A stretch of 64,000 nucleotides of DNA from Eledone cirrhosa (Eukaryota). Position 1 is the first letter of the stretch. Each line of letters begins with the position of its first letter. The DNA lies in assembly GCA_964016885.1 (NCBI GenBank), contig OZ024741.1:329282001-329346000 (forward strand), written 5' to 3'. Shown here one piece after another: positions 7,124 through 62,101 of the stretch. A model generated the notes under the pieces. The model had not been told where the DNA came from. It did not search any database and saw nothing but the letters and a program-made list of their open reading frames with translations. A program made the translations under genes and the position numbers.

Positions 7124-7126
<3 letters not shown>
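6657..7126. mobile_element. Naiad pLTR inverted repeat with 3' extension into the ORF start
   Basis: Minus arm 6657-6795; plus arm 6807-7126 nearly identical to 51453-51774 (MRKHNIDFSTKNIPIP); (TA)n on both sides. Confidence 0.9.
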
Positions 7127-7220
<94 letters not shown>

Positions 7221-12280: not shown

Positions 12281-12664
12281 AACGAAGGAGGTGTGGTAAT
12301 GAACCAGATGGACCATAACGCACCAGAGTACTCAATACTTAGGGTAGTAGAGTGGGTAATAGGAAAATGTTTAACCCCAACGGCAGATCTCAAGCAGTTT
12401 CGGCGTCTATTTCTGGACTAAATTAGAATATTTAGCGTGATAATAAATAGCCGAACTTTTCAAGGGGTAATTCCTTATATGGAACGATTGTAGTTGTCAA
12501 AAGGATTGGTCAAAATTTCTTGTAAACATCATTCTCCACGCCAGGAAGACAGTCCTTCTTTTCGACAACTCCAAGTGGATAAAGAGAACTCCCGACAACC
12601 CCTTCTAATTTAGTCCAGAAATAGCCGTCGAAACGGCTTGAGCTCTGCCGTCGGGGTTAAACAT

Positions 12665-16422: not shown

Positions 16423-16483
16423 TTTTGTCTGATGAAGGCATACCATAATTTAATGTGGTATCCCTGAAATATGTATAATGAAA
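16423..16483 (+). ncRNA. Minimal type I hammerhead ribozyme
   Basis: tttgt CTGATGA agg-c-atacca..tggtat-c-cct GAAA tatgta TA atgaa. Confidence 0.75.
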
Positions 16484-16524
16484 TAAATATGGTTTTATAA
16501 ATATAGTTTCCATTTATTAATATC

Positions 16525-16602: not shown

Positions 16603-17240
16603 GGAAAAAATGAAACGAAATTTCATTTCCCACTCTTAGTACGGCTGTTACTTAAATATAAGTATGTACACGTACATACATATATGTATACAGACATACA
16701 GTAGTATGTATATATATATACATACATGCACACATATATATATGTACGTATGGATTCACCGAACATTTATTATAATGCTCGGTGTGTTTGTAAACAAACA
16801 TCCCGTATTGAGCCGTAGTGTCCAGCAACCATCGCTGCTCGTTTGTTCAACACTGACAAAGGAACGCTGTACTAGTTTCAAGCTTATTAGCTATCGTCAG
16901 CAACGTATACCTTCCTGCCAGATTGTTGAACGTATATACTTACCTTATGCATATTAACGGCTGAGTAGCCCAATTTGCATATCGAGTGGGTTAATCGATA
17001 GTTAATTAGCTTGAAACTAGTACAGCGTTCCTTTGTCAGTGTTGAACAAACGAGCAACGATGGTTGCTGGACACTACGGCTTAATACGGGATGTTTGTTT
17101 ACAAACACACCGAGCATTATAATAAATGTTCGGTGAATCCATACGTACATATATATATATGTGTGCATGTATGTATATATATATACATACTACTGTATGT
17201 CTGTATACATATATGTATGTACGTGTACATACTTATATAT
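16603..17240. mobile_element. PLE pLTR family D, head-to-head inverted repeat
   Basis: 16655-16895 inverted at 16996-17238; same family at 31861-32672; contains an HHR. Confidence 0.75.
16865..16905 (-). ncRNA. Minimal type I hammerhead ribozyme
   Basis: cgttg CTGACGA t-agct aata agct-t GAAA ctag TA cagcg; mutated copy at 32360-32400 (+). Confidence 0.7.
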
Positions 17241-22358: not shown

Positions 22359-25300
22359 CTTTCTTTTTATTTGCCACCAGGGCATCAACAAGTGGGACAA
22401 TGGGGGGGGAGTTTACATAAAAAGGCGTCCTCAATAAGGAGGAGGCAATAACAAAATATAAAAAATAAAATATAAAATATAACAAAAATAAATTTAATAA
22501 CAAAATCCTCAATAGGGAGGAGGCGCTTTGGGGGGTCGCACACACCCCCGAAAAAAGTGTGCAACCCTTCTCCCCAGGAGCACAGAGAGGGGGTGTTCCC
22601 TTGATCTTTCAGCTTCCTCACCTATAGTCTGATGTAGAGTGAAGGCCCATTCACACGGGCCATTCTCGCCACTTTCACCCATCTTTCATAAAAACGGCTG
22701 GGGTGGAGCACATCTCTCTCCATCCTGATCCTTCTTCCGAAATGATATCGGAAGAAACGGACCAGTTGTTGGCCAGAGAGAAAGGTGTCTGACCTCAGTG
22801 CTTTCAGACGCGTCCACCATACAACCTCTTTCGCCATGAATATTACGCACAGAAACACCGCCTCTCCTTCGTTTTTGAAGAGGGGAGGCGGCTTGATCGT
22901 TACAATAGACTCGGTGGTCAACCGGATCGGTCCCACCCTTGACAGCAGTCGTTCGACATAGCCGCACAGATCGGCAATGCCCGAGCAGTGTACCAATGCG
23001 TGTGCAACGGTTTCCTCGTCGCACGCGCATCTGGGACAGATCTTTTTCGAGGGGTCCCTACCCGGGCGCCCGTGTCTGTAGAGCCTTTCTCGAACGGGCA
23101 AAGCCCCTCGGTAGCACTGCCAGGCCAGGGACCTCTGGAAGTTATCTATCCCAGGCTGAATGTCCTACCGAACAGGTTGGCCAGTTCGTCTTCCTCCATG
23201 CCTAGGGCTTCTCCAAGGGCGTCGTCGCACCTGCTAACCACCGGCCCTCTATAGAATGACGAGGTGGATTCTCCACTGACAGCCGGGTCCGCCTGCCTGA
23301 GAGCCGTGGGCGCCTGGGTACACTCGGTGTGCCAGTTATCTCGGTCTTTGCTTGACCCAGGATTGCAGCTCGGTGAGCGAAACGAGTCTGGGAAAGGCTC
23401 GCCTCACAAACGGGGCCCACACCGGTTGACCGGTGAGGAATACCTGGAGGTGCCGTAACCTTAATGCGTGTTTACGTATCATTAGCCACGGCATCCCCAG
23501 CCCTCCGTAAGAAGGGTGTTGACACTAGATGGATCTCCTCACCATAGGAGCCCGCTTCTTCCAAAGGAATCGGAAGAGTGCGCGCTCCATTTTGGCGAGC
23601 GTTTCCCTTGGGCAAGGCACGACGGTCAGGCGGTAGTAGATGACGGGCGCTATATAAGTGTTCGCCACCTCCGCCCGACCTTTCAGGGACAGTTTGCACT
23701 CGGCCCACTTCTGGGTCAGTGCAAACACCCTGTTCGTTACCTCACCCCAGTTCTTCTCCACCTGAAGGTCTGGTCCGAACCAGACCCCGAGCAACTTCAC
23801 CGGGCTCTCCGCCCAGTGCCCGACGACGCCATGTGCCGAGTTGCAGACCTATCGACTTGTCCCGGTTTAGCTTAGCCGCTGTAAACCTTTCGTATTCCTC
23901 CAGTAAGGTGCTAGCGCCCCGATTTCCGAAGCCGTCGACACCATTACTGTTACGTCATCGGCGTAGGCCGACACCGCTTTCCGCAATCCCGGTTCCAACG
24001 GGATGCCCTGCAACAACTCCAACTTCCGCAGCAGTGGCTTTAGAGTCATTACATACAGAAGGGAGGAGAGAGGGCACCCTTGAGGAATGGACCGCGCGAT
24101 TTCGAACGGCTCCGAGAGGTAGCCGTTCACCTTGATCCTAGAGCAGATGCGGCTGCTGTGCATGGCAGTGATCCAGCCCCTGAAAACGGGTCCGAAGCCT
24201 GCCGCCGCTAGCACCGCCTCCAGATAACCATGGTCGACCTTATCGAACGCCTTAGATTGATCCAAGTTGATCAGGGCTCCACCAAAGCGGGGTTCGTTCC
24301 GAACCCTCTCTATGATGTAACGCATGAGGTGGAGGTTGTCATGGCTGGACCTGGACGGGATAGCACATGTCTGCGCATCTCCCACCAGGTTGCCCACGAG
24401 AAGCGCCAACCTCTTTGCTAGCACCTTGGCCAAAATCTGTAACTCTGTATTTAGCAGAGTTATGGGCCTGAAATTATTTATATCGTCCCCCTTGTTCTCG
24501 TCCTTCCTCACTAGCGTGACTACACCCTTGGTCACAGCACAGGGAATTCTCCCGTTCTGTTACCAGTTGCAGTAGACCGCCTCGAGGAGATCGGGGAACA
24601 AGTCCGGCATAGCTAGATATAGTTCGTATGGAAGACCATCGAGACCCGGGGATTTGCGTTTGCCGCATTGGCTCAGCACGTCCTCTATCTCAGTGGCTGA
24701 AATAGGCTCCCGAGAGACGCGGCAGGCCGTCGAGGTATGGACCGAAGTCCACTTCCCCAACCGGTTCCCCGCCCCTTCCGAACAATCTGGCAAAGTGCTT
24801 TTGAAAAGCCTCGCACATCTGCTTAGGTTCAAGGATCACCCGTCCATCCTGGTCTCGCAAAGACCGGATAGTGGATCTACTCCCTCTTTTGGCTTCTGTC
24901 ACACGGGCCCAGCTAACAGCTTTGGTCCCCTCGTTTCCCAGAGGACGTATTTTGCTTCGGACAACGCAGCCTTCGTGTTTCGCGTCGAAGAACTGGTTCA
25001 AGGCCGTTCTCGACGCTTGCACTCTGGCCACGTTGCCGCTTCTCATTGCCTCTTCAACATTAACTACCAACTCCCTTTCCTTCCTATTTGAGGCTAACTC
25101 CTTACTAAATTCTATAGAGACTACTCTAATCTCTCTTTTGAGAGATCCCCACCACCTGCTGTTGACGATGGCGCCCGTCAACCGCTCCTTAACTAAAGTG
25201 TTAATCCGGTCCCAGTAAGCCTTACTTGCCGGTAGGGACAAGTTGAGCTTCCAGTAACCGGGTCCCTGTCTATGCGTTCTGTCAACGTTGACCATGCAGG

Positions 25301-26475
25301 TCACTAACTTGTGGTCTGAATAGCCAACCATGAGCATTTTTGAACAACTTAAAAAGTCCTTATCCTTATTTCTAACTAAGAACCTATCTAGGTACGACCT
25401 AGATGATCAGCTGGGGTTTGCCCAAGTCCAGGTTGGCGCAGTCGGAAAATCTAGTGGATATCTATCGGCCAGGTCAAATCGGCCGATTAACCCTTTGAGG
25501 CTGTTACACCCCTCTCTATCGGGACAGGCCCCTACGTAGGCCCAACGTGCATCTAGGATACCATTTCGATACCGGGACGTCCCTAGAAAAGTCTCCAGAC
25601 GATGGAAGAAGTCCGGCTACGTTGACCCGAAATCGCCGTAGACAGCTACCAGCCTAAACGCTCCGCCTTCACCACTGCCAAGGTCCAGAACCACTAGTCG
25701 ACCTTCCGGGTCCAAATGTACCGTCTGTGTTGCGAGACCCAGATGTTTTTGCAGCAGAACGACAACCCCGCCCCCGCCTTCGCGCTGACAGAGAGATGCG
25801 TGCATCTCAAAGTCATCAAAGGTGGGGTCCAGCTGTCGTACGTTGCTGATCCGGGCCTCGCAAATAACCACCACATCTATACGTTGTGACCTGAGGTAAT
25901 TTAGAAGCATTGCTTGCTTCCAAGTTGAGCCCAGGCCACGCGCATTTAGACAGCCTACTCTTAGCATAACCATGTTGGTGGTGAAGAGAAAAGGCACTTA
26001 CCTCTCTGCGTCCCGGGTATCGGGCTGCACAATTTCCATGGGGGTGGGGGATGGGTTGTTGGGTGGGGTGGTGGTTTGTGGAAGTGTAGGGGCAGCAGTG
26101 TGTTGTGTGGTTGGGGTGTTTGGAGTTGTGTGGGTGTTTGGGAAGTGGGTGGGGAAGTTTTTTAGGAGGACGCGGTTAATGGGCCCGACGCAGGGGGGGT
26201 GGGGCACGTCCTCTTTAAAGTTGTTTTTTAGTGTTTTATATGTGTCCTCTGGGGCCTTAATCATTTTGAGGTGGGGGAAATCCCCTGCCTCGGTGAAGTT
26301 AGGCCCTTGGGTTTTTACTAAATTGTTGTTGTATACAATGTTTAGCAGTTTTTTATTTCTTGTGTTTATGTATGTGTATGCATGTTTTTGTTTTTGTGTG
26401 TTTTTTGTTTGCTGTTGTGGTGTGCTCTTTTGTGTTGGTGTCTGTGTTATGTTTTGGGGCGGGGTTGTTTTCATT
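22359..26475 (-). mobile_element. Tx1/L1-like non-LTR retrotransposon, 5'-truncated in ORF1
   Basis: ORF1 C-terminus (..PTPMEIVQPDTRDAER) directly before ORF2; 3' UTR ends aataaaaagaaag. Confidence 0.88.
22622..25973 (-). pseudogene. LINE ORF2: APE endonuclease + RT + C-terminal zinc finger, multiple frameshifts
   Basis: CLNARGL, SDHK, GYWKLN, KSPGLDGLP, FRPITLLN, DQSKAFD, QGCPLS, YADD, CPRC..EETVAHALVHC. Confidence 0.92.
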
Positions 26476-26584: not shown

Positions 26585-26616
<32 letters not shown>

Positions 26617-26621
<5 letters not shown>

Positions 26622-27180
26622 ATACTTTGGGAGGGTCATGTTGCCAATAAGAAACACACGCACCAGTTGCTTTCACTTCAATTTATTATAATAAATTTAT
26701 AAATTTAGGAATTTATAAATTTCTGGTTGGTTGGTTGGTTCCACAACCAGATGGTTGTTTATATATTGTCAAAGTTCTTTCGTCACACATTCTGTGACCT
26801 CTTCAGTGACTGGGGATTCTTTTCTTTGTTTTTTGTGCCTCTCCTTTGGTCTGTCCTACGCCATCTCGTTTTTGTGGCGTAGGACAGAACAAAGGAGAGG
26901 CACAAAAAGCAAAGAAAAGAATCCCCAGTCACTGAAAAGGTCACAGAATGTGTGACGAAAGAACTTTGACAATATATAAACAACCATCTGGTTGTGGAAC
27001 CAACCAACCAACCAGAAATTTATAAATTCCTAAATTTATAAATTTATTATAATAAATTGAAGTGAAAGCAACTGGTGCGTGTGTTTCTTATTGGCAACAT
27101 GACCCTCCCAAAGTATAACAATATCGGTTTCAACACACGTTTTCAGATAAAGACTCTTGCTAAACAAATTTAGAAACGAA
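26617..27180. mobile_element. PLE pLTR family C, ~250 bp arm inverted repeat in (TA)n
   Basis: 26617-26865 is the reverse complement of 26874-27121; family also at 30925-31565, 32742 and 54677-54905. Confidence 0.8.
26768..26811 (-). ncRNA. Minimal hammerhead-like motif (family C); mutated plus copy at 26927-26970
   Basis: gtca CTGAAGA g gtcaca..tgtgac GAAA gaac TT tgac. Confidence 0.6.
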
Positions 27181-30927: not shown

Positions 30928-31563
30928 CAAATTACAGAGGCAGTATATATATATATATATATATATATAGGCAAATTACAGAGGCAGTAAGCATAAGAAA
31001 AAAAAAAAAAAAAAAAAAAAAAAGAATTACAACCAAAATTAAATAGAAAATATGAGTGGAACAGCAACATCACAACTTAAAACTAAGGACAAAATGAAAA
31101 CACACACACACATAGAACAAACAACCAACCAACAATAAATAAATAAATAAATAAATAAACAAATAGATAAATGAACACAAACACACACAGACACCCGGAT
31201 GTGGCGCATGCGCAAACTGAGCACACAACACACACACAGAAACAAAATGGCGTAGGACAGAAGAAAGGAAAGGCACAGAAACAAAGAAAGGAATCCCCAG
31301 TCACTGAAGAGGTCACAGAGTGTGTGACGAAAGGACTATGACTATATATAAACAACTATCTGGTTGTGGAACCAACCAACCAACCAGAAATTTATAAGTT
31401 TGTAGATTTGTAAATTTATAAATTTATAAATATATAATAAATTGAAGTGAAAGCAACTGGTGCGTGTATTTCTTATTGGCAACATGGCCCTCCCAAAGTA
31501 TAACAATATCGGTTTCAACACACGATTTCAGATAAAGAATCTTGCTAAACAAATTCAGAAACG

Positions 31564-33633: not shown

Positions 33634-34549
33634 TGAGGTGTGTCAGAAAAGTTCCAGGGCTGATGTCACAAAAGATTTATTTCGAACCCAAACTTCACAC
33701 TAAGAGGTTTCTCCTTCAAAGTAATCTCCCTGGAGTCTAATGCACTTTTCATCCTTTTCTGCCACGCTTGCATGCACTCCTGGAAAGATTCTTCCGGGAT
33801 CCTCCGCAGTTCCGTCGTCACTGCCTTTTTGATGTCGTCCACGTCTTCAAAACGGGTCCCCTCCGGGTCGTACTCGAAGATCCATGAATCATCACCGGTG
33901 ATGACTGTCCCTAGCAAGTCTGGTTCGGTTTAAAGACGCTCGAGGATGTCCTGGCACAATTGCATGCGTCGACCCTTCTGGTCATCGTTCAGCAGTTCTG
34001 GCACCATCTTCAGACAGACTTTCCGCATGTCCAAATCTTGAGTGAGAATCTTCCAGACGCTGTCCCGATTCATGCCCAGCTCATTTGCCATCAGTCGAAC
34101 AGTCAGCCGACGATCCCTACGCACCATCTGCCTGACGCGCTCAACGTTGACCTCAGTCCTGGTTGTTGAGGGCCTTCCGCTCCTGGGGTCATCTTCCACG
34201 TCCTCGCGTCCTTCTGTAAACCTCTTGCACCACTCAAAAACACGCGAGCGTGACATCGTCTCATCTCCATACACTTGCTGCAGCAATCCAAGTGCTTCTG
34301 ACGGAGTTTTCCCCAACCGTACCAGAAACTTCAAGTTTGTTCGTTGCTCTGTGCTCTGTGCTTGACGACCTGAAACAGAGGACATGTATATAAAATTATG
34401 AAGAAAAAAGTTTGATCGCTGCAGAGAGCTAAGATTACAGTTACATACACCAGAGAGATTTCTTTGAAGGAGAAAACGCTTAGTGTGACGTTTGGGTTTG
34501 AAATAAAGCTTCTATGACATCAGTCCTGGAACTTTTCTGACACACCTCG
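33634..34549 (-). mobile_element. Mariner DNA transposon, internally deleted
   Basis: TIRs gaggtgtgtcagaaaagttccagg.ctgatgtca; HTH region EQRTNLKFLVRLGK..DDPRSGRP; ITGDDSWIFEYDPE fused directly to GTRFEDVDDIK, so most of the DDD domain is missing. Confidence 0.92.
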
Positions 34550-35888: not shown

Positions 35889-38363
35889 CATTTATGGATG
35901 TTTTTACTATTTCCGACCATATTGCAGAGTTTTGGTCGTCTCATTTGCGCCGGTCACCAATTTGGTACTTTTCTCAGACCCGCGAAGACTAGGTTTTTTT
36001 AGAGGCGGCCCTTTCTCACCTCATTGTAGCTAGTCGTAAAATATTTCTTGGGATTTGACAGAGTCACCCATTGTTCCGTCTCCCATTGTTTACCGTTGTT
36101 GGTCTGAAATTGCTTCTTCGTCCAGCAGCAGCCCGCTTATATTACAACTAACCATCATATCTGGTGGCCCTATCACTATCAGCCACCTGTGAACCGTTCT
36201 CTGATAGAACAGCCCTGCCGAGAAAGGATGAAAGACGAAACTAACCTCGAAGAAGAAGAAGAAGAAGAAGAAGAAGAAGAAGAAGAAGAAGAAGAAGAAG
36301 AAGAAGAAGAAGAAGAAGAAGAAGAAGAAGAAGAAGAAGAAGAAGAAGAAGAAGAAGAAGAAGAAGAAGAAGAAGAAGAAGAAGAAGAAGAAGAAGAAGA
36401 AGAAGAAGAAGAATCATTTATCCGAGATATTCTCGTGTTGGCAAGATACACAATCGAATGAAAATTCCACGAAGTGCTTCTTCATCCCTAGATCAGATGT
36501 CTCCAGGCTCCTTGCCTGTTTTTAATATTCTTCCATTATGTAATGTCGTAGATTACTTATCTTCTCTCTCAAGTTCTGCACACCTGATACATTTATGTTG
36601 TGTTTCGTGCATCTTCTTGTAAGCAGTGTTTATCAGGACTATTTTGTTAGAGGTAGAGTAAATACAAAACATTATTTTTGAGTGAAATCTAAAAGTCCAT
36701 ATCAATGTGACACCGCAAACGTCATTAAATGTACATACATACATACATACATACATACATACATACATACATACATACATACATACATACATACATACAT
36801 ACATACATACATACGTACAGAGAGGGTATAAAAGAAGCCCGATGCCCTGCGGTTTTGACTTGTATTCGCCAAGCTGATGCATATAAGGTATCTGCATATA
36901 GGTGTATATATATATATGTGTGTATGTGTGCGTGTGTATGTGTGTGTACACGCACATATATATTATATATGTATATATACACACATACCGACATATATTA
37001 TATATATAGAGAGAGAGAGTGTAACTTGGAGTTACTGTAAGTTCACCCTGGTGAGCACTCGATGCTTAGGTTCACTTCTGTATCGAGGTGTAGAGATATA
37101 CAGAGTGTATTATATTGAACAGATAACAAAGACGATTGGTTACTCCTTCATTACATTAATTTTTCTACTAGCATTTTAAGGGGTCCGTCGAGCTGCAGAT
37201 TACAGAGTCGGGTAAGATCGATACAGATCGAACCTTGAGCTGATCAGTGGCGAGACGCGCGTCACCAACCAATAAATGTAATGAAGGAGTAACCAATCGT
37301 CCTTGTTATCTTTTTCAATATATATATATATATTGAATAGAAAACGAAAAATCATCTGAACTCAATTTATTGTGTGTTACAATTGTTTCGCCGGCGGACA
37401 GCTCGAGACGCGATCATTGTGTGGATCTGTCTGATTCTGGACCCGCAGGTTCGACGGACACGTCTAATGATTTCGGAACATATTCTCTCACTCTCTATTC
37501 TATTATACTCTGCTCTGTAAGAGCATAGATTGCTCAACTGGCATACTACCTATGGAAGCATCTTATCTACCATCAGACACATATATATATATATATATAT
37601 ATCGACATTCATCAAATCGGACCGAGGAAACAATGTTTCCATTGGTCTTTCCAGTTGCTAATACTATAGATGCTCTATACCGATATTCAAAATCCCTAAC
37701 ACTTCTAGTCGTAAGAAGTAGATCCCGAGCGCTTTAAACTGCGTTTAAAAACAACTCGTGAAGCTTCAGTTGGGCGAGTGTATAGAGTACGGAAAAAAAA
37801 GATGGAATATCCATGTGGTCTACAGTTAATTTCGTCGTAGGGAGGTCTCAATAAGGTCACAATAGTGGGTGGTGGCAGGTTTTGATCGTTCAACAACAGG
37901 TACTAACAGAGATCACATATTCCTCCTGCATATCGCAGTTTCTACCTGAGACGTTTTTCTTTTGTATATATCGAACGAATTCAACGTTTCTTCTAGATAC
38001 TGTCTGGGGAAGTCGTGTTGACAGTTGCGTGATGGCAGCAATACGTAATTATTAACGCCTCAGAAATATGTATTACGGCAAAATATAAATGAAATTAAAT
38101 ATGAACATCTACATCTGGCTTTCGTAATTATCCTAATTGTATTGATTATTACTCCTGTATATGTATGTGTGCGTGTCATTATCATTACTACGTGATGAGT
38201 CTTGTTACTCTGGAGTTTCACCTGTGTGCACACAGGATCATCAGACAAGGTTGGAATGCCTATTGATTACGTACATACTCAGGTGAAACTCCAAGGTAAC
38301 AAGACTCACAACTGACCGAGAATAAAAATCATGATTAAACACTCTACTTCGGTATATTCGGTG

Positions 38364-38459
<96 letters not shown>

Positions 38460-38590
38460 TGTGTAGGATGTGAGTTTTATTGTAGTACAATAAAGCAATG
38501 CAGATATCGGATAAGAAGCACTCTACAGTGTGTAGGACTGGAGTATACATAATATATAAGATCAAAAGATGGTTAAAGGAGTTCCATGTA

Positions 38591-38657
38591 TTTTATTATG
38601 CGCATTTCAAAAACAAACATCATCATGCAATAACATTTGTGTTTTCATCAGATAAAA
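38591..38657 (-). ncRNA. Minimal type I hammerhead ribozyme in the 3' pLTR
   Basis: ttttat CTGATGA aaacacaaatg..gtttgttttt GAAA tgcgca TA ataaaa. Confidence 0.8.
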
Positions 38658-39470
38658 CAGGAGGACATGATATGAAGGCTAAAAAACGCTTGTGGATAGT
38701 GCAGTTTTAAATCAACATATGAGAAGTAGTTTTAGATTGATGTGTGATATTGGGAAAAATATTTTATTTAGAGAGGGGGGTGGAAAGGATGAAAAAAAAG
38801 GGGGAGGAGATGAGAGTGAAGGTGGAGAGGGAGAGATGGGTGATAGAGAGAAAGAGATAGTTTTTATAACATAGAGAGGTTGAAAACCGTTGGAAGATAA
38901 TGTATAAATTAAAAGAATTTGAAAATTAACGAAGGGAAAAATATGTACGAAGAAGGAGAGGGAGTTAATATGTATTGAGATTAAAAAGTTTGATGGAGTT
39001 AATATGTATTGAGATTAAAAAGATAATAGAATAATGAATTGCGGATGAATATTCTAACGTCAAAAAGTGTGTGTGTTTACAAGTATTATGGAAATTTGAA
39101 AATTAACGAAGAGAAAAAAAATTATTAAGGTTTGTGTATTGAAGGATTTGAGAAAAATAATGTGAAGTTAAGGTTTGTATATTGAAGGAATTGATAATAT
39201 GTGCGAAGAAAGAGTTAATATGTATTAAGAATGAGTTAGATGATGGGGAGAAAAAAATAATGAGTTAAGGATGAATAATCTGGCGTCAAAACAAATGTAT
39301 ATGTTACGAAGGATTTTACAAGGTGAAGATAGAGTAAGGGTAATGAGTAAACAAGTATTATAGAGTGTATAATACCCTTTGAAATAAGGTAGGAAGATGG
39401 GTATATTTTAAAAGAGGTGTATGTATATGTGCCTTTGAGAAAAGATTCTAAATTGATAAAGAATTGAATA

Positions 39471-41854
39471 TTAGCTGTATACTTTGTGAAATGTCTTATG
39501 GAATTTATACAAGCAGATAGAAAACAAATCTGTTCGTCTATTTATTATAGAATCTAGATTAGAGATAATGGTAAATTTTTCATTTAGGCAGAGATTACAG
39601 ATTTTAGATAGAGAGCTGTTCAAGAAACCTTCTTCCAAAAGATGGTATATTTAATGTTTTTGTCTTTCAAGGACCATATGAGTTCTGAGAGGGCCGTGTT
39701 GGTTCTTTTAAGTTTGTATTTAAAAGATGAATGATGATTATAGAGACGAGCTTTAAAAGAGGTGGAAGTGGAGCCAAAATAGGTGAAGGAATTGGTGCTA
39801 GTTATAACTTTACATTCATAAATTAAGTTTTTATCAAGACAATGGTTGTTGAGAGGACATTTATTTTTAATAGGGCAATTGCAATTGCAATTAGAGAGAT
39901 TATTAATGAGTGACCTAGTGTTATCTATAGAAGGAATTGGATTGGAGAAGTTGTTTGCGATAGGAATAATAGTTTCTTGATTTAGAGTTGGATTATGAAC
40001 ATTTAGCGAAGTTGTGTTTGACGTTGTATTTGGGTTTACAGAAATTAGCCTAGGGTTTACAATGACGTCGGGAGTACTATTACTGTTATTATGAAATTCA
40101 GTGTTGGAAGGAAGAGATTTAGTATTTAGTATTTTATTGTTGTGTTTAGAGATAATGTTGGAAATATTGGAGGATGTAGAATAAGAAAATTTTATGGTGT
40201 GTTTGTTAAATATTTTACTATAGATATGTGAGGGAGGGAAGCATTTATTTAAGGCACTAAAGAATAATTTAGGAATATTGTTATTAATAGAGATGGAGAA
40301 AGGAGCATTATACCAGATTATGTTTTTGTATCTAGATCTTTTATTAAAGTTATTGGAATGATCATGATTAATTATTCTACTGTAAGTTCTTCTAGAATTT
40401 GTTTCTTTACTATATTTGATTTTATCAGGATAGCCGGCTTTAGAAAGTGCGTTATTATAGTAATTGGCGTTAGCATCAAAGATGTTTTTATTAGAAGATA
40501 TGTTAGATATTCTTTTTCCAATATTACTAACTATAGCATTCTTGATATTGGTAGGATGGTTAGATTTAAAGTTAACATAATTTAGGTTCTCATTGTTTTT
40601 ATGGTAAGGGTAATATAGGCCAGTGTCAAGATTAAGAGATACATCCAAGAAATTAGCTAGTTTGATACTGTTATCAAATTCAATTTTTAGGTTATGTTGG
40701 TTAAAGAGATTACGTATATTGTTCTTAATAATATTAAGGTTAACTATATTGCAATTTAAGATAGTAAAGAGTCCATCGTCACGATAAATTCCACCGCGAA
40801 GTTGAGGAATGTTCCGACTCAAAGAGTTCAAAATAAAGATACCAATTAAATCAGTCAATTGGGATGAATCGGATGCCCCCATTGTGATGTCGAAGTTGTT
40901 AGAGGTATCGGCTCTGGTACAATATTCATTGTTGAACTCTAGGATGGTTTTACGTGCGGTGAGGATGATGTGAAGTTCATCTGTGGTGATGTCAGAATAT
41001 TTAAGTGCGAAAGATAGAGCATTATTGAGAAGTGAAGGCCAAATGGAGGAATAGTAGCTGGCAATATCAAATTGAATAAATTTTAGTTTGTTTTTATTAT
41101 CCAATTTGTTGAACCAGCCAATCACTTCAGAAGTACCAAACCATAAATTTAGGTTCAAAGAAGAGCAATTAGAACGAACCTGTGGGATAATTCTATCCAA
41201 GATGGCTTTACTAACAACCCCCAGATCAGATTTAGAGGGGTCGATTAATCTAACAGGTAGTTCAGTGCGAAAATTGTTTTTGTGATCCTTGAGATTTATC
41301 CTCGGAGTTCTTGGGAGGAATGGTTCGGTCTTTTTTTCAATGCCAAGTTTTGACATAATCTCAGAGGCTTCAAGGTTTATGTATTCTAAATTTTCATGGT
41401 TGGTTTTACGATATTTTTTCCTAAGTTCTTTTAGGATAAGGTTGTTATAATTATCCTTGGAAATACCATATAAGTTATTGATTTTGTCAGAGTGGACTAA
41501 AACATTTTTTGAGGAATTTAGGTTAGAAATTGTGTTCTTGAGATTTACAAGGTGCTCTTGTCCTTTGTAAGGGTATCTCTTGAATTTAAGATTTTTTATT
41601 ATTTTAGTTAACTCTTCCTCGAATTGCACTAGATTTTTGTTGGAAGGAGGATTTCTTCTAGAATTAAATAGATGATCGAGGAAGTTATGTTCTTTGGTAT
41701 AGAAGTTCCCTTTTAGGCGCTGGTCATAGAAATAGACTATCCATCTAAGTCTTCTTACGAAGGAGTCAGTTTTTTCAATTAGAAGTTTGGTGAATTCAGA
41801 TTTACCAGGTATAGGAATGTCTTTAGTTGAATTGGTTATGTTGTAATAATCCAT
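39471..41854 (-). pseudogene. Naiad-type RT + GIY-YIG polyprotein, one frameshift near the C-terminus
   Basis: NSTKDIPIP, FVRRLRW, HSDK, KDHK, FIQFDI, IYRDDG, CNCP..CPL..C, LIYEC..YFGST; after WKKVS the protein continues in a shifted frame (CNLCLNEK..) to a stop at 39471. Confidence 0.92.
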
Positions 41855-42099
41855 GTTGTAGAAGAAGAAGTAAAAGACCATCAGAAGGTATCCAATATGA
41901 GAGTAAGCGCTCAACCGTTAAGGAGCAAGTTAATGTAGGAGGTGAGTTTTATTGTACTACAATAAAGCAATGCAGATATCGGATAAGAAGCACTCTACAG
42001 TTTGTAGGACTGGAGTATACATAATATATAAGATCAAAAGATGGTTAAAGGAGTTCCATGTATTTTATTATGCACATTTCAAAAACAAACATCATCATG

Positions 42100-42208
<109 letters not shown>

Positions 42209-43513: not shown

Positions 43514-43570
43514 ATTATCTGATGAAAGCGTACCAATGTGTCTTGGTACCCTTGAAATATATATAATAAA
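43514..43570 (+). ncRNA. Minimal type I hammerhead ribozyme in a PLE 3' fragment
   Basis: attat CTGATGA aag-c-gtacca..tggtac-c-ctt GAAA tatata TA ataaa. Confidence 0.75.
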
Positions 43571-43780
43571 ATAAAAATGGTATTATAAATATAGTTTCCA
43601 TTTATTTAATATCATTGTATATATACATGTAAGTATATATATATATATATATATAGTGGTAGAACGCTGGAAGGTAATATCCGTATGTATATGTATATAT
43701 ATCTAAAACATATCACTTCTAAAAAATTAATTCCATGTCCTATGCTCAAGGTATATATATATATATATATTTATATATAT

Positions 43781-43938
43781 AGGAACGAGTAGGACCCCGA
43801 CGGCTGAGCTCAAGCTTGAAACGGCTTGAGCTCAGCCGTCGGGGTCCTACTCGTTCCTATTACCCACTCTACTACCCTAAGTATTGAGTACTTTGGTGCG
43901 TTATGGTCCACCTGGTTCCTTACCACATTTCCTTCGTT
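43781..43938. mobile_element. Naiad pLTR head-to-head insertion in (TA)n
   Basis: Minus arm 43781-43815, plus arm 43816-43938. Confidence 0.85.
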
Positions 43939-43941
43939 ATA

Positions 43942-43986
<45 letters not shown>

Positions 43987-45371: not shown

Positions 45372-45520
45372 AAGGGTGTGGTAAAATACCAGGTGGACCA
45401 TAACCCACCAGAGTACTCGATATTTGGGGTAGTAGAGATGAAAAGATTCAGGACCCCGACGGCGTTCGGATTTAGCTGTTGAAACGGCCGGAGCTCAGCC
45501 GTCGGAGTCTTGAATCTTTT

Positions 45521-45611: not shown

Positions 45612-45651
45612 ATGTGTGTATGTGTGTGTGTGTATTGAGAGTACCAATTTA

Positions 45652-45708
45652 TTCTATTATATATATTTCAAGGGTACCAAAATTTTGGTACGCTATCATC
45701 AGATAAAA
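45652..45708 (-). ncRNA. Minimal type I hammerhead ribozyme
   Basis: tttat CTGATGA tag-c-gtaccaa aatt ttggtac-c-ctt GAAA tatata TA ataga. Confidence 0.7.
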
Positions 45709-46000
45709 TACGAAGTGTGTTTTATAAATTTTGACATAACCAAGGAGAATATACCTTAACGGTTCAAGGTATCCTTGGATAGTGAAGGGATAAGAGAAGA
45801 AAAGTCAGATATTTCAAATTATTAAGATCAGTATGCAAATGAGGTTTAGGTAAAAGGGTTGAAAAAACGTTATTTTAGACGCTATGTATTTTATATGATT
45901 CAAGTGTATTCGAAACATTTCCTAAGAAATTAACAGTTACCATTTTCAGACGTGCGCACACACGCACACGCACACACACATACACACACACAAACGCAAT

Positions 46001-47605: not shown

Positions 47606-49324
47606 TTTCTTTATTAGCCACAGGGGCACAAAAGAAGGGGACAATTACAAAGGGGGGAGTTTACATACAATAAAAACGTGTAAAATATTATCACAATTGT
47701 AAATTAGAAGTTAATCGATTTTCCCCAATAGGGGGAGACAGTTCATATGGGTAGCACATACCCCCGAAAAAAATGTGCAACCCTCATCTCCAGGAGTACG
47801 AAGCGTTTGTACCCCTTTCCTCTCTTCCTCTTTTTCCTCAACCTACAGGCTGATATAGAGAGAAGGCCCATTCACTCGGGCCATTCTCGCCACTTTCACC
47901 CACCTTTCATAAAACTTGTTGGGGTACAGCATCTCTCTCTCCATCCTGATTCTTCTTCCAAAGTGGTATTTGAAAAAAAGAATCAGTTTTGTCGGAGAGA
48001 AAGGTGTCTAACCTCAGCCCTTTTAACCTCGTCCACCATAAACCTCTTTCGCCATAGCTATCACACAAAGGAAAACCGCCTCTCCTTCGTTTTTGAAGGA
48101 GGGTGGCGGTTTGATCATGACAATGGACTCCGTGGTCAACCGGATTGGTCCCACCCGCAACAATAGTCGTTCTACATAGCCCCACAGGTCGGTAACGCCC
48201 GGGCAGTGTATGAATGCGTGCGCGACGGTTTCTTCGACTCGCACGCATCTCGGACAGATCTTTTTCGAAGGGTCCCTGCCCGGGCGCCCATGTCTGTAGA
48301 GCTTGTCTCAAATTGGTAGAGCTCCTCGGTAGCACTGCCAGGCCAGGGATTTTTGGAAGTTGTCCATCGGTCCCGGACGGGAGGTCCTACCGAACAGACT
48401 GGTCAGTTCGTCTTCCTCCACGCCTAGAGTTTCTCCGAGCGCGTCGTCGCACTTGCTGCGGATCAACCCTCTATAGAATGACGAAATGGAGTCTCTACTG
48501 ATCGCCGGGTCCGCCTGCCAGAGAGCTGTGAGCGCCTGAGCACATTCGATGTGGCAGTGGCCCATTTTCCTCGGTCTTTGCTTGACCCGGGACTGCAGCT
48601 CGGTAGCGACACGAGTCGTGGGAAGGCTCGCCTCACGAACGGGGCCCATACCGGTTGTCCGGTGAGGAATACGTAGAGATGCCGCAGCCTGAGCGCGTGT
48701 TTGCGCATCGTCAGCCACGGCAGCCCCAGCCCTCCGTTGGAAGGGTGTTGGCAGCAGATGGATCTTCTCACCAAAAGAGCCCGCTTCTTCCAAAGGAATT
48801 GGAAGAGCGCGCGCTCCATTTTGGTGAGCGTTTTCGCTGGACAAGGCACGATGATCAAGCGGTAGTAGATGACGGATGCTATAAAAGTGTTCGCCACCTC
48901 CGCTCGACCTTTCAAGGTTAGTTTGCACTCGGCCCACTTCTGGGTGAGTCCAAACACCTTGGCCGTCACCTCGTTCCAGTTCTTCTCAACCTGGAGGTCC
49001 GGACCAAACCAGACCCCGAGTAGCTTCACCGGTCCTACCGTCCAGCGTCCGACGACGCCATCGGAAGGCATCGGTATGCCTCTCCACGGTCCGAGTTGCA
49101 AACCAACGGACTTGTCCCGGTTCAGCTTAGCTCCTGTGAACCTTTCGTATTCCTTCAGTAAGGTGCCGACTTCCCCGATTTGCGAGGTGCTCGACACCAT
49201 TACTGTCACGTCGTCGTCCTAGGGCGACGCCGCTTTTCGGAGTCCCGGTTCCAGAGGGATGTCCTGCAATAGCTCCAACTTCCGCAGTAGTGGCTCGATA
49301 GTCAGTACGTACAGAAGGGAGGAG

Positions 49325-49714: not shown

Positions 49715-49757
<43 letters not shown>

Positions 49758-49836
49758 CGGAAGAAATGTGGTAAGGAACCAGGTGGACCATAACGCACCA
49801 AAGTGCTCAATACTTAGGGTAGTTGAGTGGGTAATA

Positions 49837-49950
49837 GGAACGAATAGGACACCGACGGCTGAGCTCAAGCCGTTTCGACGGCTAATTCTGGACTAAATGA
49901 AAATTGTTATCCTGGAATTTTAATAGCCGAGCTTCTCAAGGGGTAATTCC
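49837..49950 (-). ncRNA. Variant-core (UUGAGAA) extended type I hammerhead
   Basis: Same fold as 51396-51509, with one stem I mismatch. Confidence 0.7.
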
Positions 49951-51395
49951 ATATATGGTAAAAGGGATTGTCACAAGGATTGGTCAAAAGTTTGTTGTTG
50001 AGACATAATAATTCTATGATGGCAATTTGTTGAGGGAAGGGGTAGCTGAACCTGCCAGTAGGAGAAAGAGGGAAAGGGGGGAGGAGACCCAGTCATGCGT
50101 TGATAGTGCCGACTACAGCTGGGCATGAAGTCAAAGAAGATACTAGGGAGGGGGAGGGGGAGGAAGTCGAAACAATAAGTAAAACAATATGGGGTAAATA
50201 TATAGAAAAATAACGAGAGTGTTAAAAAGCAATTAACACAGATTGCGTAGGACTTACCTCGCCCTCAAACCCCATAATGACCCGGGGGGGTAGACTAGGG
50301 CTATAACACCCCACTTGCCGATTTTGTAATGGGTAACCCCTGCTTGCAAAGGTAGATGTAAGATCTTCTTTTATATCTTTTTATCGCTTCCTCTATATTT
50401 CCTTCTCCCCCCCCCCCATTCCTCCCTAGTCCTTCCACCCCAGTCCTCTTTCTTTGTCGTCGTCCCTTTCATTTTCTCGCCCACCCGAGGCAGCCCCTCG
50501 GTCCTTTGTAGCCTCAGTACCCCCACCCCCTTCCCCTATTCTATGATAGATTTGGCCGACTCCGCTTTTTATTGCAGATGTGTTAGACCCCGGATACTTG
50601 CCTTCTTATCCGACCGCTGCCCCTTTTCCGTGCTTTCTATATTTCTTAATGGTATCTTTGCTTTAATTTCTCGTATATCAGTATTCATTTATTTATTTGA
50701 GGGGGGGGGGGATTAATTTTCCGTATCAAATTTTACATATACTTCGTACGAGCATTTATGTTGTTTGCACTAGAAATTTTGTATCGTGGCGGCACCCTTA
50801 GAGATAGTATTAGTATTCTTTTTCGGGATTCTGAATTATTATTTCGTATTAGTTTACTTTTTTGCACTGGGTGGTTGCTGGTCTTGTGCCTGGGGTAGAA
50901 ACCTTTATTTATTATTTCGTGATAGTTTCTTTAGTATTTTGGCCCCTCACTTGTTGACCCGTCACCGTAAGATATACTCGGTTTATTACTTATACCTCTT
51001 AAAAGGGTCTCATTATAATTCCGTCCCACCTAGTAAACCTTTCTTTAGCCTAGCAATACCAGTGAGAGACTTAGGTCGTAGTAACCAGAAATTGTTTATT
51101 TTTTTACATTTAATTGCTTTTTAACACTCGGTATTTTTCTATATATTTACCCCATATTGTTTTACTTATTGTTTCGACTTCCTCCCCCTCCCCCTCCCTA
51201 GTATCTTCTTTGACCTCATGCCCAGCTGTAGTCGGCACTATCAACGTATGACTGGGTCTCCTCCACCCCCTCTCCCTCTTTCTCCTACTGGCAGGTTCAG
51301 CTACCCCTTGCCTCCACAAATTGCCATCATAGAATTATTATATCTCAACAACAAACTTTTGACCAATCCTTGTGACAATCACTTTTACCATATAT

Positions 51396-51509
51396 GGAAT
51401 TACCCCTTGAGAAGCTCGGCTATTCAAATACCAGGATAAAAATGTTCATTTAGTCCAGAATTAGCCGTCGAAACGGCTTGAGCTCAGCCGTCGGGGTCCT
51501 ACTCGTTCC
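51396..51509 (+). ncRNA. Variant-core (U3-A8) extended type I hammerhead ribozyme
   Basis: GGAA tt ACCCC TTGAGAA G ct CGGCTA..TAGCCG t C GAAA CGGCT tgagctc AGCCG TC^ GGGGT cctactcg TTCC; predicted cleavage after 51492. Confidence 0.75.
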
Positions 51510-51682
51510 TATAACCCACTCTACTACCCTAAGTTTTGAGTACTTTGGTGCGTTATGGTCCACCTGGTTCCTTACCACATTTCCTCCGTTATCTAGCTCC
51601 TATTCCCGTAGTAGAGCACTTTCCGACCCTACCACGCCGTATCCAGACTTTTCCGCTAAGCTCAAGTTCTTTCACCCGCACC

Positions 51683-53838
51683 ATGCGAAAACACAACATC
51701 GACTTCTCCACCAAGAACATCCCAGTCCCACCGAAAAAACTTTACCTTCGAATGCTCACGCAAAAAATCGATCTATTTGCGAAAAGACTTAGATGGAGAA
51801 CTTTTTTCTACGACAGATATTGCGACAATCAGGACTTCGGTACCAAGGAGAGATTCGGATTTACTACCTACAAATCTCTCCCTCCGAACCCTATGCTCTC
51901 ACCCTTCGAGAATGACCTTTTCCAACTGGTCAAGAACATTAAATTCAAACGCAGACACAACCGATTCCTACAAAAACTCCGTAGCAACTTAACAGAGTAT
52001 GATAACACCAATGACATCATGGTGCACTCGGATAAAACTGGTAACCTCTACTTTGTCAACCCCGACAGATACCACACACTGATCAGGAGCAGCCTAAACT
52101 CCACCTATAAAAAGGCTAACCACTCATGCATCGAGGACATAAATCGAGATGGACAACAAATTACCTCTAGCCTCGGGGTCGCCGACCGCACGAAACCTCT
52201 AGATCCACTGACACCCTACTTCACACTGAAGGACCACAAATCCGATTTCGACCGTAAACCTTCTATCAGGCTTATAAACCCAACGAAGTCCGACATAGGG
52301 AGAATCAGCAAAAAAAATCCTAGACCGCGTTATACCAAAAGTTAAGCAACACGTCCGACTTAGCCTATGGGTCAACACCCAGGAAGTAATCTCATGGTTC
52401 AGCAATATGGAGGCAAAACGAGACACTAAATTCATCCAGTTTGACATAGAGAGTTACTATGCTTCAATTACCTTACCACTACTTACGGCTGCCTTGGACT
52501 TCGCCGAAGCACTTGTGCCCATCACCGACCAGGAAAGAAACATCATCCTCCACGCCATGAAGACAGTCTTACTCTTCGACAACTCCAAATGGATAAAGAG
52601 AGCTCCCGACTCACCCTCCGACGTCAGCATGGGCGCGACGGATTCGGCTGAGGTCACAGATCTTATAGGATTATTCCTAATAGCCAAACTCACCGATATG
52701 TTTCCTGCATTCGGCGGTGGATTGTACCGTGATGATGGGCTCCTTACCATTAAAGAGTACAACCCCAGTAGTACAGATCGGGTCCGTAAACAATTAATCA
52801 GCTTCTTCCGCGACTGGGGATTTAAAATAACCCTACAAACGTCCCTGACCCGAGTAAACTTCCTGGACGTTACCCTTGACCTCGATAATGATCTGTACGA
52901 CCCATACAGGAAACCTAACGACAACCTGCACTACATCCACCGCAGGTCAAACCATCCTAGGAACATCACCAATAACCTGGTTAAAAACATCTCCCTCCGC
53001 ATATCCCGTTTGTCAGCTAATGATCAGATATTCGAGGAACATGCGCCTTATTACAACCAGGCCCTCAAGCGGGGTGGTTTCCGGGAGGAAATATCCTACT
53101 GTCCAGCTTCCATTAGCGGAACCAGCAGGCGACACCGCCGCTCACGCTATGTAACATGGTTCAATCTTCCCCCACAACGCCGATGTGACAACTCCTATCG
53201 GGAAAATCTTCTTTGGGCTCATTGAAAAACACTTCCCACTACAACACCGCTACCACAACATAATTAACAAAAATACCATCAAACTCTCTTACAGCACCAC
53301 ACCAAACTTTGCACAAAACGTCGTCTCCTCTAACAACAAAAAACTCAACCCCTATGGAAGAAATAACCTAAATAGCAGTGGAGAGCCGACCAGGAGGTGC
53401 AACTGTCCTGATGGATCCATTTGCCCCCTCGACAACAGATGCCGAGATCGTAATGTGATCTACCAGTGCAACGTGAGGACGGACACCTCCAACAAAACTT
53501 ATATAGGATTAACCGCATGTGACTTCAAGACCCGGCTATACCAACACAGACATACCTTCCGAAACCCGGCCCGGCGTCACGCCACTACACTTTCAGGCCA
53601 CATATGGGACTTCAAGGATAACAACATTACCTATGATCTCACTTGGAGCTTACTGTCCAGAGCCAACTCTTACACGGGAGGACGCCGTCCGTGCAATTTA
53701 TGCTCGGAGGAAACTTTACAAATGCTGTTTTCGACGGACCAACTCCTAAACAAGAAAGATGAACTGGTTACTGCATGTAAACACAGATTGCGTAGGACTT
53801 ACCTCGCCCTCAAACCCCATAATGTCCCGGGGGGGTAG
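51683..53838 (+). pseudogene. Naiad-type RT + GIY-YIG polyprotein with two homopolymer-associated frameshifts (~52315, ~53170)
   Basis: FSTKNIP, FAKRLRW, HSDKTGN, LKDHK, RLINPTKSDIG, FIQFDIESYY, LYRDDG, CNC..CPL..C, VIYQC..YIGLT, CNLC..E, LLNKKDEL..CKHR. Confidence 0.93.
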
Positions 53839-54676
53839 ACTAGGGCTATAACACACCACTTGCCGATTTTGTAATGGGTAACCCCTGCTTGTAAAGGTAG
53901 ACGTAAGATCTTCTTTTATATCTTTTTATCGCTTCCTCTATATTTCCTTCTTCCCCCCATCCCTCCCTAGTCCTTCCACCCCAGTCCTCTTTCTTTGTCG
54001 TCGTCCCTTTCATTTTCTCGCCCACCCGAGGCAGCCCCTCGGTCCTTTGTAGCCTCAGTACCCCCACCCCCTTCCCCTATTCTATGATAGATTTGGCCGA
54101 CTCCGCTTTTTATTGCAGATGTGTTAGACCCCGGATACTTGCCTTCTTATCCGACCGCTGCCCTTTTCCGTGCTTTCTATATTTCTTAATGGTATCTTTG
54201 CTTTAATTTCTCGTATATCAGTATTCATTTATTTATTTGGGGGGGGGGGGGGTTATTTTTCCGTATCAAATTTCACATATACTTCGTACGAGCATTTATG
54301 TTGTTTGCACTAGAAATTTTGTATCGTGGCGGCACCCTTAGAGATAGTATTAGTATTCTTTTTCGGGATTCTGAATTATTATTTCGTATTAGTTTACTTT
54401 TTTGCACTGGGTGGTTGCTGGTCTTGTGCCTGGGGTAGAAACCTTTATTTATTATTTCGTGATAGTTTCTTTAGTATTTTGGCCCCTCACTTGTTGACCC
54501 GTCACCGTAAGATATACTCGGTTTATTACTTATACCTCTTAAAAGGGTCTCATTATAATTCCGTCCCACCTAGTAAACCTTTCTTTAGCCTAGCAATACC
54601 AGTGAGAGACTTAGGTCGTAGTAACCAGAAATTGTTTATTTTTTTACATTTAATTGCTTTTTAACACTCTCGGTAT

Positions 54677-54905
54677 TGTTTGTTCTATGTGTGTGTGTGT
54701 TTTCATTTTGTCCTTAATTGTAAGTTGTGATGTTGCTGTTCCACTCATATTTTCTATTTAATTTTGGTTGTAATTCTTTTATGTTTATTGCCTCTGTGAT
54801 TTGCGTGTGTTTCTTATTGACAACATGACCCTCCCAAAGTATAACAATATCGGTTTCAACACACGATTTCAGATAAAGAATCTTGCTAAACAAATTCAGA
54901 AACGA
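54677..54905. mobile_element. PLE family C fragment with inverted 5' part
   Basis: 54677-54804 is the reverse complement of ~30968-31122; 54805-54905 matches 31462-31563. Confidence 0.75.
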
Positions 54906-55039: not shown

Positions 55040-55916
55040 TTACCAGTGGAACAATACCTACAGGTTAGCAATTAAATAGAAAAAAGCTAAGTCAGAATCA
55101 AATCTCTGAATTAGAGTTTTAAATTACCAACCTTATAATTCAGAGATTTGATTCTGACTTAGCTTTTTTCTATTTAATTGCTAACCTGTAGATATTGTTC
55201 TCCATACAGTAACGGTTAAACTCACATGTAATAATCCTTTATACACATCTCACTGTGTAACACACTTCTCTCTGTGTAATATATTTGTATTTGAGCTCAG
55301 ATGAAAATTATCTGTTCTTCTTTGAGCTAATATTATTATTAGTGTGAACTGCGGAATACTTTAATTCCGATCTTTGTATATTTAATGAGCTCCAGTTTGT
55401 TGAGCTAATAAATTTGAATGGTTCGGCTGCTCTCTCTCTAGCATTTTCCCCAATCCATGAGAGCCGTTATTTGATGTAAATAAACACGTGATTTCGCCCC
55501 ACTCTGGGCAGCGTGTATATTAGCTTTCTCTCTACCCATTAGGCTAGATGTGTTGTGAACAACACCCATACTTGCTGATTGAGGAACCTGTGCGCTGTTA
55601 CACCGCACATTTCTGTGGCGAAAGGAACTAGATTCGTATCCGCAAGCTTATAGTTATAAGGTTGGTAATTTAAAACTCTAATTCAGAGATTTGATTCTGA
55701 CTTAGCTTTTTTTCTATTTAATTGCTAACCTGTAGGTATTGTTCTCCATACAGTATCGGTTAAACTCACATGTAATAATTCTTTACACACATCTCAATGT
55801 GTAGCACACTTCTCTGTGTAATATATTTGTATTTGAGCTCAGATGAAAATTCTCTGTTGTTCTTTGAGCTAATATTATTATTACTGTGGACTGCGGAATA
55901 CTTTAATTCCGATCTT

Positions 55917-61796: not shown

Positions 61797-61836
61797 TACA
61801 TATATAATATTATATAAATATATATATATATATATA

Positions 61837-62035
61837 ACGAAGGAAATGAGGTAAGGAACCAGGTGGACCATAACGCACCAAAGTACTCATAACTTAGGGT
61901 AGTAGAGTGGGTAATAGGAACGAGTAGGACCCCGACGGCTGAGCTCAAGACGTTTCGACGGCTAATTCTGGACTTAAAAAGAAAAAAAAATTACCCGTTG
62001 AAACGGCTTGAGCTCAGCCGTCGGGGTCCTACTCG

Positions 62036-62039
<4 letters not shown>
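61837..62039. mobile_element. Naiad pLTR head-to-head insertion in (TA)n
   Basis: Minus arm 61837-61974, ~23 nt filler, plus arm 61998-62039. Confidence 0.85.

Positions 62040-62101
<62 letters not shown>

Follow-up and report, generated by a model that had tools for sequence, protein, structure and literature searches.

Why Penelope-like elements keep hammerhead ribozymes is stated to be unclear by Craig et al. (2021; PMC8557442). The same paper defines the Hydra clade by motifs that include DKT, RW[KR], a CxCX5C linker, CxxC and CxH, treats a length below 3 kb and a canonical hammerhead as general rather than diagnostic traits of these elements, and describes Naiads as having an N-terminal GIY-YIG endonuclease joined to the reverse transcriptase (RT) by a CxC domain, together with a change from DKG to DKA. 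According to Cervera and de la Pena (2014; PMC4209133), the in vitro activity of Penelope hammerheads is low, and Penelope hammerheads with a U3-A8 core pair occur in the Cercyon elements of Schistosoma mansoni (~1,300 matches). In vitro, insertion of the Poseidon element PAc of Anolis carolinensis did not depend on its hammerhead, which was found to need protein (Frangieh et al., 2024; PMC11167929).

The locus considered here lies in a window of 64,000 nucleotides from Eledone cirrhosa (the whole stretch of DNA that was analysed, to which all positions refer unless a locus is named). A type I hammerhead motif with a U3-A8 core sits near the 3′ end of a young, high-copy retrotransposon with Hydra-type motifs. 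From comparison of its sequence with the rest of the genome, we consider it likely that this motif cuts the RNA of the element in the germ line, at the bond between C51492 and G51493; such cleavage would probably be weak and mostly dimeric. An earlier note on this DNA had placed the host element among the Naiads, an identity that is ruled out by the order of the domains and by the Hydra motifs, since the RT is N-terminal, the endonuclease C-terminal and the RT motif DKT rather than DKA. Judged by its protein motifs, with reference proteins compared by eye, the host is a young Hydra-clade Penelope-like element, whose parts in the window were delimited by sequence comparison:

51683..53838, plus strand: ORF with RT and C-terminal GIY-YIG of a Hydra-clade Penelope-like element, 93.9% identical to an intact copy
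50235..51595, plus strand: upstream partial unit (pLTR) bearing the complete hammerhead
53780..54680, plus strand: downstream repeat of 50235-51138, 98% over 906 nt
49751..50236, minus strand: inverted arm, equivalent to 51110-51595, which abuts (TA)n and has a second hammerhead with a stem I mismatch
61831..62043, no strand assigned: example of a short inverted pair of 3′-half copies starting in loop II

Two 1-nt insertions, near 52310 and 53169, disrupt the window ORF. An intact relative (L121) has a single ORF of 717 aa, with the RT first and a GIY-YIG-type endonuclease, recognized by motif only, last (YIG at residue 606); it displays RWR at 37 (R for K), DKT at 117, the CxCX5C linker at 572, CxxC at 670 and CxH at 698. 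The motifs of the Hydra clade (DKT, RWK, CxCX5C, and CxxC plus CxH round a conserved E and N) are all present, with RWR replacing RWK, and insertion into (TA)n is found as well, in a genome of 3.0 Gb that is rich in (TA)n. The general traits of the clade are not shared, the unit being 3,531 nt long vs less than 3 kb and the hammerhead having a U3-A8 vs a canonical core. Pfam gave no match above noise for the element protein or three homologues. A homologue search (E<=1e-30) returned 2,049 proteins, the best full-length matches being ~40-43% identical; these matches come without genomic context and therefore provide no outgroup hammerhead. Many of the 150 best protein matches are open frames of ~784 codons, several of them in head-to-tail arrays, and one tandem array consists of four 3,531-nt units differing by 0-1 base, with one hammerhead each, 1.1 kb past the stop. 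By these open frames and near-identical tandem units, the family is young. The downstream repeat in the window stops short of its own hammerhead, and further short inverted 3′-half copies are found at 3766-3898, 5831-6038, 6652-7128, 12608-12657, 43778-43943 and 45377-45509.

Other repeats share the window. A second, AT-rich Hydra-type element at 38499-42108 on the minus strand has an ORF (39620-41881) 38% identical to the protein of the hammerhead family, together with a hammerhead of the canonical CUGAUGA type (38589-38659). The upstream copy of this element begins within loop II beside (TA)n, as do 5 of 23 matches in the loci compared, and fragments of its kind are seen at 13132-14218. Beyond these 5 of 23 in the sister Hydra family, loop II starts in the window's other hammerhead families form no clear cluster. 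The 64-kb window also contains at least seven additional hammerheads of the canonical CUGANGA type. They derive from several repeat families and mostly occur in multiple copies in the loci compared; the following seven are absent from the Rfam matches listed:

16421-16485, 43515-43569 and 31299-31343, plus strand; 45650-45710, 26768-26810, 38201-38249 and 16864-16906, minus strand: further CUGANGA hammerheads, found by descriptor

Two broken non-LTR retrotransposon copies with endonuclease- and RT-like frames (22686-25973 and 47747-49222, minus strand) and a frame resembling the N-terminus of a mariner-type transposase (33930-34385, minus strand) were named by eye. Long perfect or near-perfect inverted repeats at 55052-55197 and 26614-27124 are probably foldback or inverted Penelope arms.

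The hammerhead itself, and the elements of its predicted structure, are as follows:

51396..51509, plus strand: type I hammerhead motif with stem I extension, subfamily a1, U3-A8 (sequence reading, descriptor, folding, alignment)
51407..51413, plus strand: 5′ half of the core, U3 U4 G5 A6 G7 A8 A9 (TTGAGAA; sequence reading, genome counts of the 3/8 states)
51414..51469, plus strand: stem II (G10.1-C11.1 and a 6-9 bp helix) and long loop II with an inner hairpin (reading, folding)
51470..51491, plus strand: GAA core, stem III and palindromic loop (GAGCTC, 51480-85), a predicted dimer interface (folding, conservation)
51463..51478, plus strand: rival 6-bp hairpin, mutually exclusive with stems II and III (folding, pair probability 0.50 in the window copy)
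51492..51493, plus strand: predicted scissile bond C17/G1.1 (genome-wide copies starting at G51493, A-rich inserts)
12362..12474, minus strand: decayed hammerhead copy of the older subfamily b, N7 = A (descriptor, alignment)

On re-reading, the helices and core all fall where the earlier note had placed them. Stem I corresponds to 51402-06/51493-97 and its extension to 51396-99/51506-09; stem II pairs G51414 with C51469 and then CGGCTA (51417-22) with TAGCCG (51462-67), enclosing a loop of 39 nt; GAAA is at 51470-73 and GTC at 51490-92; and stem III (51474-78/51486-90) reaches 6 bp when A51473-T51491 is counted. The distance of ~190 nt from the motif to the ORF ATG is likewise confirmed, the predicted cut lying 190 nt from it; the palindrome in loop III and the rival hairpin had not been mentioned. 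Three helices surround a core that is open at stem I, as in a type I hammerhead, and the core has U4 G5 A6, A9, G12 A13 A14, A15.1-U16.1, H17 and G10.1-C11.1, with position 7 free. A descriptor allowing any Watson-Crick 3-8 pair found 21 loose matches in the 64-kb window, among which this motif is the only one with stems I>=5, II>=6 and III>=5; the strict-stem version matched in 0 of 30 dinucleotide-shuffled windows, looser matches numbering 0-6 per shuffle. Its folding energy alone is unremarkable (z -0.19 to -0.99). Rfam gave no hammerhead match for the motif even at E<=10, which bears out the expectation that standard searches would miss it. In alignments inspected by eye for canonical pairing, no base pairing of the stem I bulge with loop II, as a candidate tertiary contact, holds across subfamilies; a loop II-bulge pseudoknot fits subfamily a2 only, by eye, and is not claimed.

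That this motif is a hammerhead under selection is supported by the way its copies vary. In 13 subfamily-representative rows, stem I, U4-G5-A6, A9, G10.1, stem II, GAAA and stem III are 0.92-1.00 conserved, and the loop III palindrome is 0.99 conserved while the surrounding bases vary. Less conserved in the same rows are position 7 (0.38), where each of the four bases occurs in one subfamily or another, the stem I bulge (0.72) and the 5′ part of loop II (0.76). Three stem II pairs are altered on both sides, all in two copies of the oldest subfamily, d. Together, the free position 7, the 92-100% fixation of core and stems and the double-sided changes agree with the selection on the fold that had been proposed for the motif. 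As to the stem conservation or covariation across genomic copies named as a criterion at the time, the stems are conserved; covariation over the whole structure is modest (its score was reached by 20 of 500 shuffles), and none is seen at 3-8. The second variant to which attention had been drawn, at 12362-12474, does contain TTGAAAA, but this copy is decayed: its C17 has become T, and stems II and III contain mismatches. An observation in the same region is that 12276-12657 is a chimera of an inverted subfamily b arm, an RT-internal piece (equivalent to 52538-52610) and a 3′-half copy, which suggests template jumps.

The 3-8 pair is not strictly compensatory, as had been supposed. Exact genome counts in a fixed flanking context gave 4,220 copies that, like the window copy, have the Watson-Crick pair U3-A8; 1,537 copies with A8 and a base other than U at position 3, this base being C in 97 of the first 100 matches listed, hence ~1,490 mismatched C3·A8 copies (~26% of complete copies); and 49 copies with G8 (39 U3, 9 C3 and 1 A3). 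No 3-8 covariation was found within the family, C3-G8 being no commoner than chance (9 of the 49 G8 copies vs ~13 expected if independent). The older subfamily c, which the count pattern undercounts, has the mismatch U3·G8, and the most divergent subfamily, d, has A8 in two decayed copies. The tree being unrooted, the subfamilies were ordered by shared characters and divergence (d, c, b, ab, a0, a1, a2); the rooting rests on these because d was left out of the tree and true c out of the first tree, and the ladder alignments (119 copies each) are non-random as their loci were picked by similarity or pattern. On this ladder, C3·A8 copies sit between older (b) and younger (a1, a2) U3-A8 copies, and the existence of C3·A8 and U3·G8 subfamilies indicates that the 3-8 pair drifted through mismatch states in lineages still amplifying. 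The effects of 3-8 swaps are judged from general background and from the C3G/G8C data for anole PAc (PMC11167929). Two further observations concern particular copies. Subfamily d (L269:663-790 and L228:1784-1911, minus strand) has a 10-bp stem II with compensatory changes and altered stem III flanks, keeps the same palindrome and has a similar start word at an equal distance from GAAA. Eleven identical copies with G5 changed to T (L007-L017; G000:C20 3.5-4.9 Mb and C27), nine of them on C20 in ~100-kb steps, are probably a segmental array rather than the result of transposition.

Monomer competence, which had been attributed to the window hammerhead, is doubtful on folding predictions because the rival hairpin competes with it and the conserved palindromic loop III favours dimers. 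The hammerhead fold is indeed predicted, but its share is only 0.04 in the window copy (0.31 in a2 and 0.30 in b); it is the predicted minimum fold for subfamilies a2 and b, and the rival hairpin is that for the window copy. For the stem III region, the predicted homoduplex has -30.7 vs -7.1 kcal/mol for the hairpin, and the predicted co-fold minimum is a strand-swapped hammerhead, also when a complete motif is combined with a half motif starting at A51452.

The termini of the copies were mapped relative to the hammerhead. The 194 copies with a complete hammerhead form two main groups, one terminating at 51510-19 (63 copies) and one at 51590-99 (96 copies), almost always at (TA)n; among the remainder, 21 run off the locus and 5 end at 51490-99. 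The 3′ termini and the main 5′ terminus are:

51506..51513, plus strand: short 3′ terminus, which joins (TA)n, a putative reverse-transcription start (start 1)
51514..51595, plus strand: 82-nt tail with the long 3′ terminus at ~51591-95, a second putative reverse-transcription start (start 2)
51450..51455, plus strand: putative capped transcription start at A51452, in an initiator-like word inside loop II (5′-end cluster, preceding G)

Since the element ends ~17 and 99 nt downstream of the predicted cut, cleavage does not define its ends, and the templates must have had an intact or rejoined cut site. The idea that the ribozyme cuts tandem transcripts into unit lengths is therefore possible only via religation or circles.

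At the other end, the 3′ half of the motif, counted as an exact 28-mer, occurs 50,701 times in the genome, the 5′ half ~5,800 times. Of the tail-anchored matches, the first 100 listed comprise 60 that start at 51446-61, 6 that start at 51492-94, 2 that start at 51400-45 and 9 that are complete. As many as 4,066 copies start at A51452, with non-template bases preceding. All 30 loci checked for this start are true junctions, the G being clearly untemplated in 8, and a G directly precedes A51452 in 64 of 100 copies listed (binomial p 4e-10 vs one third). An extra G is the expected mark of a copied capped RNA end, and the site has what we take to be a resemblance to an initiator. A51452 is thus likely, from these junctions, to be a capped transcription start inside loop II. 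The tail-anchored sample also contains a minor cluster of 5′ junctions at 51448-49, and 51465-51476, +18 to +29 from A51448, presumably resembles the Drosophila downstream core-promoter motif.

A junction test for G51493 was defined before it was run, with base 51490 as the matched control, the only control base used genome-wide. The G51493 pattern has 262 genome matches, the first 30 of which comprise 16 true junctions and 14 G-run insertions, and the control pattern has 32 (28 true junctions in 30), so that true junctions at G51493 are ~4.5-fold over this control base. Adjacent bases were compared in a sample of 100 only, in which 1, 2 and 3 copies start at 51492, 51493 and 51494, respectively. 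From the first 100 G51493 matches listed, 68 were examined, the other 32 beginning with CG and probably being G-run insertions, as were 14 of the 68. In 21 of the 68, both inverted arms start at G51493; C17 is present in none of the 21 partner arms, and the spacer between the arms is a single A in 13. Three copies (L438, L448 and L457) have an A-rich insert exactly between C17 and G1.1, and in five others (L343, L362, L432, L434 and L439) G51493 is, by eye, joined to ORF-internal sequence, as a template jump would be expected to give. The 30 control loci lack both features: none of their partner arms begins at the control base, 18 of the 30 beginning instead in the loop II cluster, and A-rich inserts are absent. 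The identical inversion joint recurs in one contig from a separate run set. Contigs from four sequencing runs of a single study add nothing beyond the DNA picture. No footprint copy could be assigned to the window copy's own branch, and enrichment of the footprint in the best-folding subfamilies is not significant (17:3 vs a background of 41:16, p = 0.37); a subfamily bias seen against control junctions (17:3 vs 9:19, p = 4e-4) was gone against the unbiased sample. The G51493 copies are best read as derived from a second kind of RNA, the uncapped 5′ end of which lies at the scissile bond; the 5′ product could be A-tailed, and these starts are likely a DNA record of germ-line cleavage in vivo.

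These data outline a model in which transcription would begin at A51452, so that the transcript would open with a coreless 3′ half, the complete ribozyme being confined to its far end or to the tandem unit that follows. The RT would start internally at two sites (51513 and 51595) on two (TA)n nicks and run off the 5′ end of the RNA. Capped RNA would give the ~50,000 half-ribozyme copies, and the less frequent copies that begin at G51493 would stem from a minority of templates, those cleaved at C17. Through the palindromic loop III, a complete ribozyme could cut the site in a half copy or a neighbouring unit. Without rejoining of the ends, such cleavage would leave the upstream ORF and the RT start sites on different RNAs, and it is for this reason probably a side or regulatory route and not a required step, which would explain the continued amplification of U3·G8 and C3·A8 lineages. 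This side route might yield unit-length circles that seed tandem arrays. More speculatively, the distal ribozyme would remove the cap and circles would form; a circle route was proposed for Penelope elements by Cervera and de la Pena (PMC4209133), and circularization with RtcB was shown for retrozymes (PMC7229834).

A bolder version of these ideas, which we put forward tentatively and would not rely upon, is that the element has its promoter inside its own ribozyme and that its transcript opens with a coreless half-hammerhead. The complete ribozyme at the far end would dock onto this half via palindromic stem III and remove the cap; the unit-length RNA released in this way would be circularized and copied into tandem arrays. 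The genome would then be a base-exact fossil record of the capped start and of the cut, i.e. of Penelope cleavage in vivo, and of a drift of the 3-8 pair via U·G and C·A back to U-A. It is unlikely, although this deserves consideration, that the motif is a dead or near-dead hammerhead relic, the 3′ half of which serves as promoter and RT-binding structure, and that the G51493 starts are due to a stalled RT at the base of stem III or to cutting by a protein nuclease. The amplification of C3·A8 and U3·G8 lineages would be in accord with a relic, but the lineage appears to regain U3-A8. The best-conserved stretch coincides with the inferred promoter region, but conservation also extends upstream of the inferred start, to the 5′ half-core and stem I (97-100%), with position 7 free. 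The 3′ strand of stem III does end one base from the junction, the subfamily bias of the footprint is not significant and anole hammerhead mutants insert unimpaired in vitro (PMC11167929); nevertheless, stalling is a poor explanation for two arms that stop at the same base with C17 absent (21 of 21) and for A-rich inserts exactly at the scissile bond. Very improbable is the scenario of the earlier note, an efficient monomeric ribozyme routinely cutting tandem transcripts to unit-length RNAs for transposition, which draws on a stem III (5-6 bp) longer than in most Hydra hammerheads of File S2 of PMC8557442, on one hammerhead per 3,531-nt unit in tandem arrays and on the fold predicted for a2 and b (share ~0.3), but is at odds with ends downstream of the cut, so that most templates were uncut or rejoined, with ~6 of 100 tail arms starting near the cut vs 60 of 100 near A51452, with the conserved palindrome and rival hairpin, and with the amplification of mismatch cores.

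The junction record is the part worth following; the U3-A8 core of a Penelope hammerhead, the headline of the earlier note, is in itself already known (PMC4209133). The insertions seem to preserve two kinds of RNA 5′ end, one at the predicted cut and the other at a capped start within the ribozyme, and so offer a genome-only assay for ribozyme activity in vivo that is applicable to other high-copy families. The 3-8 core pair provides a natural allelic series (U-A, U·G and C·A) usable for kinetics. All this bears on the open question of ribozyme function in living cells. In the literature covered, which included few subscription papers, genomic junctions at the cut of a Penelope hammerhead, or a start site inside one, were not found.

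Among described systems, the Eledone family is close to the Hydra clade (Craig et al., 2021; PMC8557442), with which it shares a C-terminal GIY-YIG, the DKT, RW[KR], CxCX5C linker, CxxC and CxH motifs, (TA)n targets, a hammerhead ~100 nt from the 3′ end, an inverted 5′-truncated arm and a tail. In contrast to its U3-A8, the Hydra families in File S2 have CUGANGA cores in 25 of 25 cases and short loops II and III, which makes the U3-A8 core new for this clade as far as the table in File S2 reaches; it further differs from the Hydra set in its loop II of 37-41 nt, stem III of 5-6 bp, 6-nt palindrome, 3.53-kb unit and thousands of complete copies. Identity with Hydra-1_Obim was ruled out, the hammerhead being different and the 3′-half motif absent from the supplement text of the same paper. 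With Naiad (Craig et al., 2021; PMC8557442), it shares pLTRs, inverted arms and a (TA)n preference; the N-terminal endonuclease, DKA and lack of a canonical hammerhead described there fit none of the protein features of the Eledone element. In Cercyon (PMC4209133), the hammerhead likewise lies in a Penelope pLTR and has U3-A8 in its core; helix I is short, the long helix II has additional nucleotides at its base, the helix III region is palindromic, and dimer action and a circle route have been proposed. However, Cercyon motifs are minimal, without a stable helix III, which is long in Eledone, where moreover loop II holds the inferred transcription start and 3-8 mismatch states form whole subfamilies; long-loop variants like those of Eledone may appear in the supplements of that paper. 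In Penelope of Drosophila virilis (Schostak et al., 2008; PMC2377424), there is also an internal promoter with an initiator in the pLTR, but its start lies upstream of intron and hammerhead, whereas the inferred start in Eledone splits the hammerhead. Finally, PAc (Frangieh et al., 2024; PMC11167929) resembles the Eledone family in having two internal RT starts downstream of the hammerhead, which give rise to a tail, in the nicking and extension of both target strands and in that cleavage is unneeded for insertion. Its C3-G8 core overlaps the ORF start and its tail is 30-40, vs 82 nt in Eledone, and no RNA ends were found at the cut of PAc, whereas genomic copies of the Eledone element do start there.
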